Part shown: piece after piece, positions 2,202 to 8,624 of the stretch
Layout of the letters: every line of letters starts with the position of its first letter
Position numbering within the stretch: position 1 is the stretch's first letter
UHGV virus genome: UHGV-1378817
DNA length: 64,000 nt
Strand: one strand, 5' to 3'
Origin: a virus
The notes under the pieces: model-generated
What the model was told of the DNA's origin: nothing
Database searches by the model: none
Seen by the model: only the letters and a program-made list of their open reading frames with translations
Position numbers and translations under genes: made by a program

Positions 2202-2471
2202 TTATCGAGGCACTCGGTGGATGATTCTAACAGTAACTGCATTTTCATTCATCAAGTATGCATCTACATCTCTGTAAATATAAAACTTCTGCTCACTATC
2301 AACAACACAAGCTACCGCCCCTTCAGAGTTGTCTTCAAAAAAGACCACCACTGCATCGCAGCTGAGTTCATGATATGACTCTCGAAGATTTACAGCCAGA
2401 GGATTGAAATCGTCACGAAAATCTACGGTATGGGTTGGATTTACACGCTCTACAATTTTAAGTGTATACAT
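2202..2471 (-). CDS. hypothetical protein
   Basis: ORF-track ORF 2202-2561 trimmed to the internal Met (MYTLKIV...) because the longer start overlaps tRNA-Pro. Confidence 0.4.
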   Translation of the reverse strand: MYTLKIVERVNPTHTVDFRDDFNPLAVNLRESYHELSCDAVVVFFEDNSEGAVACVVDSEQKFYIYRDVDAYLMNENAVTVRIIHRVPR

Positions 2472-2517
2472 TTTAAAGGTTCCTTTTGTTTGTATATGTT
2501 TAAAGTATAACTGAAAG

Positions 2518-2594
2518 TGGTCTCCACGGAGTGATTCGAACACTCGACCTCCTGATCCCAAATCAGGCGCTCTACCAAGCTGAGCTACGCGGAG
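2518..2594 (-). tRNA. tRNA-Pro (anticodon UGG)
   Basis: Minus-strand cloverleaf: 7-bp acceptor stem, anticodon stem CCUGA/UCAGG with loop UUUGGGA, T-loop GTTCGAATC, encoded CCA. Confidence 0.7.
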
Positions 2595-2605
2595 TATTTA
2601 TTATT

Positions 2606-2680
2606 TGGTGGCCCTGGGTGGAATTGAACCACCGTCTGGCGATTATGAGTCGCTTGCTTGAACCTTCCAGCTACAGGGCC
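2606..2680 (-). tRNA. tRNA-Met (anticodon CAU; could be a lysidine-modified Ile tRNA)
   Basis: Acceptor stem GGCCCUG/CAGGGCC, anticodon loop CUCAUAA, T-loop GGTTCAATTCC, encoded CCA. Confidence 0.6.
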
Positions 2681-2681
2681 A

Positions 2682-2757
2682 TGGTGCTGATAGCAGGACT
2701 CGAACCTGCAACCTATTGATTACAAATCAATTGCACTACCAATTGTGCTACATCAGC
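2682..2757 (-). tRNA. tRNA-Thr (anticodon UGU)
   Basis: Acceptor GCUGAUG/CAUCAGC, anticodon stem AUUGA/UCAAU with loop UUUGUAA, T-loop GGTTCGAGTCC, encoded CCA. Confidence 0.65.
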
Positions 2758-2762
2758 AAAAA

Positions 2763-2861
2763 GGTGCTAGGTGATGGAATCGAACCACCTATGTATTCAA
2801 CGACTACCTCGTCTATTTTCAGGATTAAAAATCCTCGCCCTTGCCAAAGGGCTTACCTAGC
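2763..2861 (-). tRNA. type II (long variable arm) tRNA-like gene, anticodon ambiguous
   Basis: Good acceptor stem (GCUAGGU/ACCUAGC), D-arm and T-arm (GGTTCGATTCC) plus a long variable arm, but the anticodon arm only forms a 4-bp stem with loop UUUUUAA; no encoded terminal A. Confidence 0.4.
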
Positions 2862-2959
2862 TCAGTATGTTGACCATGTTGCTAGTCGGCGATGACGACT
2901 GTAACATTTGATAATCCGGTTCTGCTTCCGGCTTTCGCTTAATTACAAGGTCAACAATA

Positions 2960-3049
2960 TGGCTGAGGGTAATGGAATCGAACCATCATCGAGTCATCCT
3001 CAACGGGACGGTTTTCAAGACCGCTTGAGCACCATTGCTCCCTACCCTC
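2960..3049 (-). tRNA. tRNA-Ser (anticodon UGA)
   Basis: Acceptor GAGGGUA/UACCCUC, anticodon loop CUUGAAA, long variable arm, T-loop GGTTCGATTCC, encoded CCA. Confidence 0.6.
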
Positions 3050-3164
3050 ATTTATAAACAATACTGATAATGACACTGATTTTCGAGCAGTTAGTGACTA
3101 GTATAAACGACGATAAATATCAATGCCATTATCTGTATGATTTATGCATTTAAAACTATAAATT

Positions 3165-3251
3165 TGGTGGGGAGTGGTGGAGTCGAACCACCCGAGTCGC
3201 AATGACAATAGATTTACAGTCTACACCGCTACCTCTACGGGATAACTCCCC
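3165..3251 (-). tRNA. tRNA-Tyr (anticodon GUA)
   Basis: Acceptor GGGGAGU/ACUCCCC, anticodon loop CUGUAAA, long variable arm, T-loop GGTTCGACTCC, encoded CCA. Confidence 0.6.
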
Positions 3252-3255
3252 AATT

Positions 3256-3330
3256 TGGCACCCCGTACTGGACTCGAACCAGTGTCAACGGCTTAGAAGG
3301 CCGCTGCTTTATCCACTAAGCTAACAGGGC
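3256..3330 (-). tRNA. tRNA-Arg (anticodon UCU)
   Basis: Acceptor stem with G-U wobbles, anticodon loop CUUCUAA, T-loop GGTTCGAGTCC, encoded CCA. Confidence 0.65.
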
Positions 3331-3426
3331 ACTGGGTGGCTTTCTTTTACACCTTAGCCGCCAGAAAAGGTGGGAGACCATGTTTACAATATTACACTGT
3401 TAAGCAAAGTTTGTCAAGAAAATATT

Positions 3427-3765
3427 TTAGCTATTGCCAACAGGTTGTATTTCTGTGGTAAATGGCATAAAAGGTGCTGGTTTTTCAGCCTCTTCTACTA
3501 CCACCTCTTCCTCTTCACCAAACATCTCATCATATTCTTCCTGCATTCGGTCTGCCTTATCAAGAACATACTCTGCAATGCTTTGACGAATATTTTGTTT
3601 GGTTTTCGGGTCCAACATCAGCTCTCTTAAAACTTTGTGAGCTTCTGGAACCATCGCTATAAAAGATTCCTTCATATCAAGGATGTTCTTCTCTAGCTGA
3701 ATGGCGTTGGACTCCTCTTTCAGAGGTCTGCCTCTACGGCGACGCTTTTTAGTTGTATCCGCCAT
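3427..3765 (-). CDS. hypothetical protein, basic N-terminus and acidic C-terminus
   Basis: ORF 3427-3918 trimmed to internal Met (MADTTKKRRRRGRP...); minus-strand TTGACA-17-TAAAAT promoter and GGAGGA RBS immediately upstream. Confidence 0.45.
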   Translation of the reverse strand: MADTTKKRRRRGRPLKEESNAIQLEKNILDMKESFIAMVPEAHKVLRELMLDPKTKQNIRQSIAEYVLDKADRMQEEYDEMFGEEEEVVVEEAEKPAPFMPFTTEIQPVGNS

Positions 3766-6268: not shown

Positions 6269-6823
6269 TTACTCCCCGCTGTCAATAGCAAGACTCATTG
6301 CAATACTGTATGCCTCTTCTAATGGTAAGAGTCTACCCCACACATCCCAACCGACATCAAACTGCCTGCCAAACAACTGTTGTGTGGTTCCGTGAGCATG
6401 ACCGAACAGTTGTACTGATCCGTGAGGCTTTCTGTTCCACTTTGCAAACTGGTAATGGCTCATACAGATCAAATTCTTGTTGTGGCGAAGCTCGTAATAA
6501 TCTACAACCTCATGATAGAACTCTTTCATAATTCTGACAGTCGTCCTTGTGTCATGGTTGCCACGAACAAGAATAATATGTCCGTTCAACATATTTAGAA
6601 TATCTGGAAGTAAGTTGTTGATATTTTTATCAGTAGTGCACGCAATATCTCCCAAGTGGAACACAGTGTCTGCAGGTGACACAACAGAGTTCCACTCGGC
6701 GATGATTCCCGCATTCATACTGTCAAGATTGTGATCATACTGAGATCTGTGTTTTTGACATGAATCAAACTCCATGACCCGCTGGTGGAGAAAGTGTGTG
6801 TCGCTTGTTACAAAGTATTTCAT
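6269..6823 (-). CDS. calcineurin-like metallophosphoesterase
   Basis: Motifs SDTHF (DxH), GDI, GNHD and GHAHG in canonical order; ORF 6269-6928 trimmed to Met MKYFVTSDTHF. Confidence 0.6.
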   Translation of the reverse strand: MKYFVTSDTHFLHQRVMEFDSCQKHRSQYDHNLDSMNAGIIAEWNSVVSPADTVFHLGDIACTTDKNINNLLPDILNMLNGHIILVRGNHDTRTTVRIMKEFYHEVVDYYELRHNKNLICMSHYQFAKWNRKPHGSVQLFGHAHGTTQQLFGRQFDVGWDVWGRLLPLEEAYSIAMSLAIDSGE

Positions 6824-6830
6824 ACATTCC

Positions 6831-7241
6831 TCATTTAAGTTTAATGCAGTTTTTAAGCTGGCGTTCCATACGATCCACAACCCTGTCTGGAACATCATGA
6901 ATGCTTTTATTACCGTGTCGGTTTTCAACCACGATTACGGTATAATTATACCCATGGCTGATTGCCATGTCAACATATTCTTGCACATGTTTTTCTTTTG
7001 TAAACGTATTACTTACCACGATACGGTCGTATCCCATACGCATCATATCTTCTACGTTATCTTTGCACCATTTTGCTGCAAGTGTTACTTTACTTGCATC
7101 CCAGTTGTAATTGCCGTCATCGTCGTACCAGAACATGTCGTTCTCAAAATGTGGATACAGACCTTCTAAAGATAGCGCATTTGCCAGTGTTGATTTGCCA
7201 GACCCTGGTAGACCACGCACGATATATAGCATTTTAGACAT
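6831..7241 (-). CDS. P-loop polynucleotide 5'-kinase-like protein
   Basis: MSKMLYIVRGLPGSGKSTLANAL Walker A; overall pattern resembles the T4 Pnk kinase domain; GGAGGA RBS upstream of ATG at 7241. Confidence 0.55.
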   Translation of the reverse strand: MSKMLYIVRGLPGSGKSTLANALSLEGLYPHFENDMFWYDDDGNYNWDASKVTLAAKWCKDNVEDMMRMGYDRIVVSNTFTKEKHVQEYVDMAISHGYNYTVIVVENRHGNKSIHDVPDRVVDRMERQLKNCIKLK

Positions 7242-7341
7242 AGTAATCCTCCGTTTTAATTTCAAAGATAGTATACCTAACTGTTTTGTTAATTTCAAGT
7301 GTTGACACTAGGTTATTTGTGTGGCAGGATAGACTGACAAA

Positions 7342-8277
7342 ATGACAAATGAGGAACGTATGATGAAGTATTTTAATGCAGACGACCTAGTTGACAAAGG
7401 TCTTGTAACCAGTAGATATTACCCAGATCTTGGGTTAAAGATCTATAAATACGCCAGAAAAGTATTTTACAACAATTTATGGCATTTGTCCCCTCGTTTA
7501 CTGGAGTGCCGAGGCATTGTTGTCGGTAATGAAGGAAATGTTGTGGCATGGCCCTTCACAAAAGTGTTTAACTTGGGAGAAAACTCCACCAACCTGCCTG
7601 ACAATAAGCTTGTGACGGCGGTAGAGAAAAAGAACGGATTCCTTGGTGTGGTATCATCTCATAAAGGTGAACTATTGTTCTCAACAACCGGATCTCTTGA
7701 TTCTCCATATTGTAACCTTGCAAAGGAAACCATCCAGGAGCAATGCGGTAATTTAGATCTTATCAAGAAGGTTATGGGCAATGAAAACATGACATTCATG
7801 TTTGAAATTTGTCACCCTTCAGATCCGCATATTGTTCAGGAAGATCATGGCGCATATTTGATAGGTTGCAGGTATAATGATTCTGGAATAATGCTACCAG
7901 AGGCAGCTTTAGATGGGATTGCCAAATACCTTGGTGCAAAACGTCCTCACACTGTGCGTGAAATTCCGTTCAGCTATGCAAAAGAATTGGCTGCAGAAAC
8001 AAGAGGTGAAGGGTATATGATTCGTAAGCCTTACTATCCTTATGATCTGCAGCTGAAGATCAAGTCTCCATACTATCTGGCACGGAAGGCCGTAATGAGG
8101 GGTAAAGCTTGGAAGATTTGGGATGATGATATCTTTAAACGTGTTGACGAAGAGTTTTACGGCATGGTAAACTTCATTCGCAACAACTACACAGAGGATG
8201 TATGGAACTGCCTCCTGGAGCAGGAACGCCGTGAGATACTTGACTACTATTTCCACAACGAGGACTATATGCAATGA
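7342..8277 (+). CDS. RNA ligase (T4 Rnl1-like)
   Basis: LLECRGIVV, PFTKVFNLGEN and nucleotidyltransferase motif I lysine in VEKKNGFLGVV parallel T4 RnlA (ECRGIMF, PMEKFFNLNEN, LTKEDGSLV). True start may be ATG at 7360 (better RBS). Confidence 0.55.
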   Translation: MTNEERMMKYFNADDLVDKGLVTSRYYPDLGLKIYKYARKVFYNNLWHLSPRLLECRGIVVGNEGNVVAWPFTKVFNLGENSTNLPDNKLVTAVEKKNGFLGVVSSHKGELLFSTTGSLDSPYCNLAKETIQEQCGNLDLIKKVMGNENMTFMFEICHPSDPHIVQEDHGAYLIGCRYNDSGIMLPEAALDGIAKYLGAKRPHTVREIPFSYAKELAAETRGEGYMIRKPYYPYDLQLKIKSPYYLARKAVMRGKAWKIWDDDIFKRVDEEFYGMVNFIRNNYTEDVWNCLLEQERREILDYYFHNEDYMQ

Positions 8278-8624
8278 AGAAGTTGATTGTGTGGCTGGAT
8301 GACTTGAGAGACCCGTCAAATTATGGGCTCCCAGACGCTATTTGGCTAAAGAATTCCTCCGAGTTTATGGATTTTATTAACGATAATAGAAAGCTCTACA
8401 GACGCGTTTCTGAGTGGCATATGGACAACGACCTTGGAGAGGTATTAGAAGGGTACGATTGTCTATCTATGTTGGAGGAAAAATTTGTATTTGGTAAGCC
8501 TCCTGTAGTTGACAACGTGAAGATTTTCGTGCATACTTCTAACCCATCAGCTGCTCGTAAATTCATGCTTGCAGCTGACTCGTTTAAAAAGTTTGGAATA
8601 GAGATTAAACAAAACATCTACTGA
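8274..8624 (+). CDS. hypothetical protein
   Basis: 116-aa ORF translationally coupled to the RNA ligase gene; no motif I recognise. Confidence 0.45.
   Translation: MKKLIVWLDDLRDPSNYGLPDAIWLKNSSEFMDFINDNRKLYRRVSEWHMDNDLGEVLEGYDCLSMLEEKFVFGKPPVVDNVKIFVHTSNPSAARKFMLAADSFKKFGIEIKQNIY

Follow-up and report, generated by a model that had tools for sequence, protein, structure and literature searches.

A tRNA-shaped RNA gene with a non-canonical body, maintained in the tRNA arrays of rV5-like and phi92-like phages

Comparative sequence analysis indicates that positions 2763-2861 of virus genome UHGV-1378817, within the 64,000-nucleotide (nt) stretch analysed here (the window), are a functional and evolutionarily maintained gene for a tRNA-shaped RNA and not a relic. 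The source phage is an rV5-like Vequintavirus, an E. coli myovirus, and many such genomes match its region 2400-3500 at 99.6% identity. The gene belongs to a family of 31 distinct sequences from Vequintavirinae, phi92-like Justusliebigvirus and metagenomes, and alignment of these sequences shows a selected, L-shaped tRNA-like RNA with a non-canonical body, of which the copy in the window is a derived form, carrying A73 and a loop like that of tRNA-Lys. We read the gene as probably encoding a specialised mimic or surrogate of tRNA, and not as a dead gene or an ordinary Leu or Ser tRNA.

The family is already visible in databases but uncharacterised. Public records label the same gene tRNA-OTHER, tRNA-Pseudo, tRNA-Lys (AAA), tRNA-TERM, 'tRNA-???(atcc)' or hypothetical protein, or give it no label at all, and it is absent from the six tRNAs listed in the rV5 genome paper (PMC3606486). 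Our literature searches found no description of, nor experiment on, this RNA. About 18 GenBank records of the MG0656xx series named 'Campylobacter phage' match rV5-like phages of E. coli in this region at 99% identity or more, and are probably mislabelled or contaminant assemblies.

A tRNA-like fold under selection

The original prediction, made from the DNA letters, described a type II tRNA-like gene with a non-canonical anticodon arm and gave no strand; we assign the gene to the minus strand. Read 5′ to 3′, the RNA divides into GCUAGGU AA GCCCUU UGGC AAGGGC G AGGA UUUUUAA UCCU GAAAAUA GACGA GGUAG UCGUU GAAUACAUA GGUGG UUCGAUU CCAUC ACCUAGC A CC (Table 1), followed by UUUUU and then by tRNA-Thr. 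Its minimum free energy is -34.2 kcal/mol (z = -3.66), and 0 of 200 shuffles fold equally well. The Rfam tRNA model (RF00005) matches 2765-2861 on the minus strand at 35.5 bits against a gathering score of 29, with anticodon-stem position 27 deleted and about 26 nt inserted in the variable region, and ARAGORN reports 2763-2861 on the same strand as 'tRNA-???' with a 4-base anticodon. Sequence and Rfam alignment bear out the well-formed acceptor stem of 7 base pairs (bp), D arm, variable-region hairpin and T arm of the original prediction; Rfam also aligns the same 4-bp anticodon stem and UUUUUAA loop, and the terminal A of CCA is indeed not encoded, the RNA ending in ACC before a U. No standard Leu or Ser tRNA with other arm boundaries came out of the gene finders: ARAGORN gave 'tRNA-???', its 4-base anticodon being implausible, and Rfam the same arms.

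To gather homologues we used BLAST from the window and then from diverged copies, together with pattern scans and a covariance model, R1. This model scores the window gene at 102.6 bits (E = 3e-28) as its sole strong match; there are no further copies within the 64-kb window, where the next-best matches are ordinary tRNA-Ser and tRNA-Tyr. BLAST recovered homologues in Avunavirus and TH18, in Seunavirus (PVP-SE1, NINP13076, GAP31 and others), in Mydovirus (BIS47, Ro1 and AV124), in Henunavirus (an Erwinia phage) and, within the separate subfamily Stephanstirmvirinae, in Justusliebigvirus BME3 and VEcB. Members from IMG/VR and metagenomes were added by pattern scans and R1; four IMG/VR pattern matches (L033, L035, L036 and L038) were rejected as chance, as were most genome and metagenome pattern matches. 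No bacterial source emerged when 185,579 genomes, one for each bacterial or archaeal species, were scanned; the best R1 score was 27 bits, and the reach of the scan was limited by an exact degenerate pattern pre-filter.

Contigs of 866 kb and 368 kb bear the most divergent members (L134 5031-5137, L148 6186-6292 and L097 3791-3897), which sit inside large, repetitive arrays of Val, Gly, Arg and Met tRNAs and carry the loop UAUCGAA or UAUCGCA with A73. These contigs also hold a weaker paralogue (35-39 bits) with a 4-bp stem CCGC/GCGG, loop CCUCAAA and U73-CCA. They show no phage hallmarks, no PHROG match except an HNH nuclease and no plasmid match, and the family may perhaps not be restricted to phages. 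Also present on the same contigs are a 73-nt gene that ARAGORN calls 'tRNA-SeC(tca)' and, beside the array, a 432-amino-acid (aa) HNH protein with an IscB-like PLMP-type N-terminus (L134 7632-8930).

Base pairing across the family is strongly constrained. In an alignment of 19 sequences, standard pairs make up 99.1% of the cells assigned to acceptor, D, anticodon and T stems, and sliding the 3′ partners by 1-3 columns lowers this proportion to 34-48%; both sides change in 10 of the 23 stem pairs, and the covariation score exceeds that of 500 of 500 shuffles. All seven acceptor pairs are standard in all 19 sequences, with changes on both sides of pairs 3, 4 and 5. Within the D stem, pairs 11:24, 12:23 and 13:22 covary (CG, GC, AU) and two U:A pairs are invariant, and T-stem pair 51:63 covaries between U:A and C:G. 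The four pairs of the anticodon-type stem are standard in 31 of 31 members, pair 4 being A:U, U:A or C:G and pair 1 A:U, G:C or G:U. The variable hairpin keeps its pairing on free sequence, changing A:U to G:C in TH18 and Av-05 and giving way to longer, unrelated stems in other genera. Comparison of the window with its closest outgroup likewise reveals compensatory changes, A4:U69 to G4:C69 in the acceptor stem and A:U to G:C in the variable hairpin.

The elbow provides a direct signature of tertiary structure. Pair G19:C56 is replaced by U19:A56 without exception, the two forms occurring 13 and 6 times in the 19-sequence alignment and 20 and 10 times in the 30 correctly parsed members; the tRNA elbow, and hence the L-shaped fold, is thus maintained. 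One further sequence (L097) was mis-parsed in the 31-member tally and is the source of its few non-standard acceptor- and T-stem cells. The best-conserved elements outside the T loop are two A-rich linkers with no role in decoding. GAAAA of linker 1, which G2820 opens, is invariant in the 19-sequence alignment and served as the anchor for parsing all members in the 31-member tally; in linker 2 of the same alignment AAUAC is invariant and AUACAUA nearly so. A possible G-G pair between G2836 and G2820 would sit atop the anticodon helix.

These patterns contradict the suggestion in the original prediction that the gene could be a pseudo-tRNA. Labels such as tRNA-Pseudo and tRNA-OTHER, the low Rfam score, the incomplete CCA and the short anticodon stem are what a decaying gene without function might show. 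Against such decay stand 31 distinct homologues in two phage subfamilies, 10 pairs that change on both sides, a covarying elbow, compensatory changes even within the Vequintavirus/Avunavirus clade and retention of the gene in the most reduced arrays, and we give decay very little credence. The other two candidates put forward there, a processed regulatory or other RNA and a tRNA with unusual decoding, are both still open.

A body distinct from standard tRNA classes

The RNA shares with canonical tRNA (RF00005) a 7-bp acceptor stem, a 5-bp T stem, the T loop UUCGAUU, G19:C56 and a place in a phage tRNA array, and the window copy also has a 7-nt loop with U33 and A37 and passes the gathering score. 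By contrast, canonical tRNA needs a D stem of 3-4 bp with a loop of 7-11 nt, U8 and A14, whereas the window RNA has a 6-bp D stem, a 4-nt loop and A8; position 8 is A, not U, in all members, and the D-stem tetraloop is UGGY or UGUC across the family. The D arm in the original prediction is well formed as described, but not of the standard kind. Canonical tRNA has a 5-bp anticodon stem, whereas the window RNA has four Watson-Crick pairs flanked by G; across the family this stem is 4 bp, NGGN/NCCN, and is bordered at both ends by an invariant G. The variable region, of 31-41 nt, consists of an unconstrained hairpin between GAAAA(A)UA… and …(G/A)AAUACAUA strands; in the window it is 31 nt, with a 5-bp hairpin between single strands of 7 and 9 nt. 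Orthologues of a canonical tRNA keep their anticodon and discriminator, whereas the 31 members have 11 loops and A, C or U at position 73.

The type II label is correspondingly only loosely right: the variable region is long, but the arm architecture is not that of type II, in which a variable arm of about 10-24 nt starts 1-2 nt past the anticodon stem, and in its D arm the RNA is tRNA-Sec-like. A Leu, Ser or Tyr tRNA of the ordinary kind with misdrawn arms would account for the long variable region, and A73 of the window, an identity element of Leu and Tyr tRNAs that stands in place of the U73 of most relatives, is compatible with Leu. No gene finder returns such a fold, however, no Leu, Ser or Tyr anticodon appears in any register supported by relatives, and the D arm lacks type II features. 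Pair C2:G71 is nearly invariant in the family and is a SerRS antideterminant in E. coli (PMC9976931). It speaks against the charging with Ser that a type II label would lead one to expect. We regard this alternative as practically discounted.

Members outside Vequintavirus are missed by ARAGORN, and their best Rfam model is tRNA-Sec (selC, RF01852), at 23-38 bits against a gathering score of 47; for the window itself tRNA-Sec is not the retained match. The family resembles tRNA-Sec in its 6-bp D stem, UGGY tetraloop and extra arm and, in several lineages, a UCA loop. However, tRNA-Sec has an acceptor/T branch of 13 bp (8/5 in bacteria), whereas the family has a 7/5 branch in which an eighth pair would mismatch. 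tRNA-Sec further combines UCA with U33, G73 and a 6-bp anticodon stem, unlike the UUU, A73 and 4 bp of the window RNA and unlike the A33 and U73 of those relatives that do carry UCA. We accordingly rejected membership of tRNA-Sec, given the sub-threshold scores and four defining features that disagree (acceptor/T branch, length of the anticodon stem, position 33 and discriminator).

Among described concepts, the group of allo-tRNAs and selC* tRNA-Cys (Mukai et al. 2017, PMC5389517) comes nearest, by likeness of features. These RNAs likewise have a Sec-like D stem-loop, a long extra arm and polymorphic anticodons including UAU, and selC* tRNAs have U73 with UCA; some lie in phage tRNA clusters, and some have been proposed to be non-translating regulatory RNAs (PMC5389517). 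They differ in having 8/4 or 9/3 acceptor/T branches and longer anticodon stems, whereas 7/5 branches in all members, a short stem and A-rich linkers mark the family described here.

Rfam returns no match to YrlA (RF02553) in the window. YrlA, a bacterial Y RNA, contains a tRNA-mimicking module and is tied to Rsr-RtcB RNA-repair operons; it has no anticodon arm and has a Ro-binding stem. Phage T4 produces two stable non-tRNA RNAs, 'species 1 and 2' (rnaC and rnaD), that are co-transcribed and co-processed with its tRNA cluster, and to our knowledge their function is still unknown. T4 also encodes Pnkp and Rnl1, and the resemblance of its RNAs to the window RNA is one of description only.

A variable loop and limits on decoding

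In most lineages the loop follows YAUCNAA (CAUCAAA, UAUCAAA, UAUCGAA or UAUCGCA), with A33 where tRNAs have U33. Seunavirus and Mydovirus members add a C-G pair and so have a loop of 6 nt, or of 8 nt if that pair is counted in the loop (CAUCCA, CCUCAA, CCUCCA, CAGCCA or CUUCCA). Between the near-identical Seunavirus genomes KE22 and NINP13076, 3 of 109 nt differ, 2 of them within the loop. UUUUUAA of Vequintavirus and UUUAUAA of Avunavirus are derived states with U33. The discriminator is U73 followed by an encoded CCA in 20 of the 31 members, A in Vequintavirus and C or U in Avunavirus, and the 3′ tails drift.

Where a Seunavirus or Mydovirus member presents 'UCC' in its loop, the phage encodes a canonical tRNA-Gly(UCC) as well, and for decoding the member is therefore redundant there. 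Decoding could also be of an unusual kind, with the RNA acting as a frameshift or nonsense suppressor that reads through a 4-base AUCC anticodon or, in relatives with a UCA loop, weakly at UGA. The ARAGORN call has a 4-base anticodon, some records label relatives 'tRNA-TERM / suppressor', ancestral-looking loops contain UCA, the D arm resembles that of the UGA-reading tRNA-Sec, and Seunavirus and Mydovirus loops can be drawn with 8 nt, a form seen in frameshift suppressors. However, the AUUUU/AAAAU stem on which ARAGORN places AUCC cannot form in any other genus, and we rejected that fold; the window loop presents UUU and no stop anticodon, and A33 should weaken decoding. In the Erwinia phage with a UCA loop, UGA ends 18 of 51 long open reading frames (ORFs), showing no avoidance of this stop and making efficient opal suppression unlikely, a test of low power that is compatible with weak suppression. 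In BME3, UGA closes 6 of 48 long ORFs, but the genome is 37% GC. We consider a suppressor function very improbable.

The tRNA array and neighbouring genes

The gene is one of seven in a minus-strand array (Table 1) that recurs in more than 100 Vequintavirus records and whose tRNA-Tyr has the anticodon GUA (ARAGORN). A consensus scan places a sigma-70-like pattern match upstream of the array that is likely, by sequence, to be its promoter. In Vequintavirinae the tRNA-like gene adjoins tRNA-Thr(UGU) or sits one gene away from it; the Justusliebigvirus copy instead comes after tRNA-Leu(UAA). The gene is kept even in arrays reduced to 6 canonical tRNAs.

Another alternative is that the sequence is a processing or architecture element, an RNase P/RNase Z module that punctuates or stabilises the array transcript and has no function as a free RNA. 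The gene always lies inside tRNA arrays, often abutting the preceding tRNA (…CCAAU|G1), and its acceptor/T minihelix and elbow, which are RNase P determinants, are the best-kept structural parts. In the window, the T-arm/acceptor hairpin (2768-2791) followed by a run of five U (2758-2762, minus strand) also gives an intrinsic-terminator-like score just before tRNA-Thr. The D arm and U-rich loop of the gene score similarly, and such scores are probably by-products of the fold. Punctuation alone needs no D arm, G-flanked anticodon-type stem, YAUCNAA loop or linkers, all of which are conserved, and neighbouring tRNAs already supply processing sites; a purely architectural role is improbable.

At 3-5 kb from the tRNA array lies an RNA-repair module (6269-8624; Table 1) whose proteins are 46-50% identical to Erwinia phage proteins annotated 'RNA ligase', 'Pnkp' and 'phosphoesterase'. 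In the Erwinia relative there is, in addition, a gene for a tRNA nucleotidyltransferase (L182 32766-34031), and BME3 (L181 24786-25805) has an annotated 190-aa 'histidyl tRNA synthetase'-like protein and a 144-aa 'tRNA amidotransferase'-like protein. A tblastn search of the 64-kb window found no homologue of the two BME3 proteins or of the Erwinia CCA-adding enzyme; these may lie elsewhere in the genome.

Table 1 Features of the tRNA-like gene, its array and associated loci
Feature	Position	Strand	Details
tRNA-like RNA gene	2763..2861	minus	99 nt including discriminator A and CC; ARAGORN, Rfam tRNA, covariance model R1
Acceptor stem, 5′ strand GCUAGGU	2855..2861	minus	7 bp; pairs with ACCUAGC, 2766-2772
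D arm	2837..2852	minus	6-bp GCCCUU/AAGGGC, 4-nt loop UGGC; tRNA-Sec-like
G between D stem and anticodon stem	2836	minus	present in 31/31 members
Anticodon-type arm	2821..2835	minus	4-bp AGGA/UCCU, 7-nt loop UUUUUAA (U33, UUU, A37, A38)
Linker 1 GAAAAUA	2814..2820	minus	conserved single strand
Variable-region hairpin GACGA-GGUAG-UCGUU	2799..2813	minus	free sequence, pairing kept
Linker 2 GAAUACAUA	2790..2798	minus	conserved single strand
T arm GGUGG-UUCGAUU-CCAUC	2773..2789	minus	5-bp stem, canonical T loop
Discriminator A73 and CC	2763..2765	minus	next base U; CCA incomplete
tRNA array, seven genes	2518..3330	minus	Arg(UCU)-Tyr-Ser(UGA)-98-nt spacer-X-Thr(UGU)-Met/Ile(CAU)-Pro(UGG), X being the tRNA-like gene; ARAGORN
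Sigma-70-like promoter TTGACA-17-TAATAT	3389..3417	minus	about 60 nt upstream of first tRNA; consensus scan 10/12; pattern match only
Metallophosphoesterase	6269-6928	minus	PF00149
P-loop kinase	6831-7298	minus	PF13671
T4 Rnl1-family RNA ligase	7342-8277	plus	PF09511, 56 bits
cREC_REC protein ('cyclic-phosphate processing receiver')	8274-8624	plus	PF20274
Non-coding block after tRNA-like gene (relatives)	L004 1601-1925; L003 1600-1800		also L010, L011, L014, L015, L021, L026-L028
Further 'tRNA-???' genes (relatives)	L018/L019/L020 (311-385 or 251-325); L011 324-400; L027 5994-6079; L022 928-997		

Other non-coding RNAs accompany the gene. The 98-nt spacer between tRNA-Ser and the tRNA-like gene (2862-2959, minus strand) is itself a structured RNA that no Rfam family matches. 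About 65 nt of it form a core that shares 83-87% identity with phage lambda, in a stretch that lies without annotation between orf-64 and S (J02459 44866-44952; L005 601-687). Phages D6 and ST1UNAM match the core as well, and L008 372-460 is a further locus of this RNA. The closing stem still pairs in three sources with unrelated sequence (UGUUGACC/GGUCAACA, AGGAUCA/UGAUCCU and GUUGUGCUG/CAGCACAAC), and hairpin 2 shows the compensatory change GUCG/CGAC to GGCG/CGCC. In Seunavirus and Avunavirus, a conserved non-coding block of 200-300 nt follows the tRNA-like gene; it is 90-98% identical within Seunavirus, and a 64-nt core is common to both genera. The ends of the TH18 block are able to base-pair (UAGUGUAU…AUACACUA), and where it starts the block is similar to the 5′ half of a tRNA (GCAUUAGCUCAG). 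The block has no Rfam match and no counterpart in the window, which rules it out as an obligate partner RNA. In the arrays of relatives ARAGORN reports more 'tRNA-???' genes, whose anticodons have 2 or 4 bases (ga, agat, ggca and gt), and non-canonical tRNAs may be common in these phages.

Weighing a mimic against a working tRNA-Lys

We tentatively favour, at somewhat less than even confidence, a processed, L-shaped and non-decoding tRNA mimic that would act in the conflict over tRNA damage as a nuclease decoy or a partner of repair enzymes. This reading is preferred because the conserved features of the family are irrelevant to decoding and most loops are poor for it, and because members are redundant with canonical tRNAs and the gene is retained in minimal arrays. 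A33, the 6- or 8-nt loops, loop shifts between near-identical genomes and an unconserved discriminator all speak against decoding as a family-wide function, and the Rnl1-family ligase, kinase, phosphoesterase and cREC protein near the array are in keeping with such a conflict, as is, in Vequintavirinae, the closeness to tRNA-Thr(UGU). T4 uses such a tRNA-repair set against PrrC, a tRNA-Lys anticodon nuclease.

According to the proposed mechanism, transcription of the RNA together with the array would start from the promoter-like site near 3400. RNase P and 3′ trimming would release it, a CCA-adding enzyme would complete its CCA, and it would fold into a tRNA-like L. In this lineage its anticodon arm would present a tRNA-Lys(UUU)-like loop on an aberrant body: the arm reads G30 A31 UUUUUAA U39 C40, and that of E. 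coli tRNA-Lys reads GA CUUUUAA UC. It could then serve as a competitive substrate or decoy for host nucleases that cut the tRNA-Lys anticodon arm (PrrC-type or PARIS AriB-type), or as a dedicated partner or substrate of the phage Rnl1, kinase and phosphoesterase repair enzymes. A wider form of the proposal, which we regard as possible but doubtful, is that rV5-like and phi92-like phages carry an undescribed class of tRNA mimic, a non-decoder that would serve tRNA-directed immunity and repair as a decoy, sensor or cofactor and whose loop is retuned in each lineage, here to tRNA-Lys, the classic target of PrrC and PARIS.

The main alternative is an atypical working tRNA-Lys(UUU), arisen in Vequintavirus by an anticodon shift and refractory to nucleases, that would accept Lys and read AAA and AAG when host tRNA-Lys is cut. 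Host nucleases of the anticodon arm would find in its unusual body and anticodon stem a poor substrate. The window loop, with 7 nt, U33, UUU, A37 and A38, is joined by A73; several GenBank records name the gene tRNA-Lys with 'codon recognized AAA', and the array tRNAs other than Tyr(GUA) all read A-ending codons. The 7/5 acceptor/T branch is the form recognised by EF-Tu (PMC5389517). There is precedent in the variant tRNA-Lys(UUU) of phage T5, which acts against PARIS: phage tRNAs can escape AriB through changes in the anticodon stem, and T5, with a phage-encoded UUU loop and a changed anticodon stem, belongs likewise to a lineage that invests in tRNA-level counter-defence (PMC11464382, PMC12409363). 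T5 tRNA-Lys, however, is a canonical 76-nt class I decoder, whereas the window RNA, known here from sequence, has an aberrant body.

Several features sit poorly with lysine decoding. The RNA has four Watson-Crick anticodon pairs, a 31-nt variable region and a non-standard D arm, and we reason that class II LysRS may clash with so large a variable domain. CCA is not encoded in the window RNA, and within its clade the 3′ tail drifts. In Avunavirus, the sister clade, UAU is combined with C73 or U73, a mismatch to the A73 of Ile identity. The linkers and G flanks are unchanged, which can be argued to mean that the ancestral function persists. We hold a working tRNA-Lys to be a serious possibility, though on balance an unlikely one.

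Other observations weigh against the mimic. Lysine identity in E. coli consists of the anticodon triplet and A73 (PMC9976931), so that UUU and A73 give the window RNA the complete set, and its loop is the most canonical of the family. The rV5-type phages have no other tRNA-Lys, whereas BIS47 and Justusliebigvirus, in which the loop differs, carry a canonical tRNA-Lys(UUU); these points suit a working decoder no less well. After depletion of host tRNA-Lys a decoy could not bring translation back, and would therefore by itself be a weak counter-defence. The tie between the RNA and the repair module is one of proximity only, each functional step proposed for the RNA is inferred from sequence, and a phage-defence role leaves unexplained why the most divergent members lie on very long contigs that do not resemble phages.

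Significance

Phage tRNAs have lately been recognised as counter-measures to tRNA-cutting bacterial immune nucleases. The gene described here is present in hundreds of sequenced coliphages that are therapeutic candidates and in phages of Salmonella, Klebsiella and Cronobacter, where it is unannotated or inconsistently labelled. As a selected, structurally distinct family it offers annotators a model and experimentalists a defined target, and it extends the small group of non-canonical, tRNA-Sec-like tRNAs by a lineage with a 7/5 branch. If the RNA is a working tRNA-Lys, the range of structures that LysRS, EF-Tu and the ribosome are known to tolerate would be widened; if it is a non-decoding mimic, it would represent a new kind of RNA-based anti-defence factor or repair cofactor.

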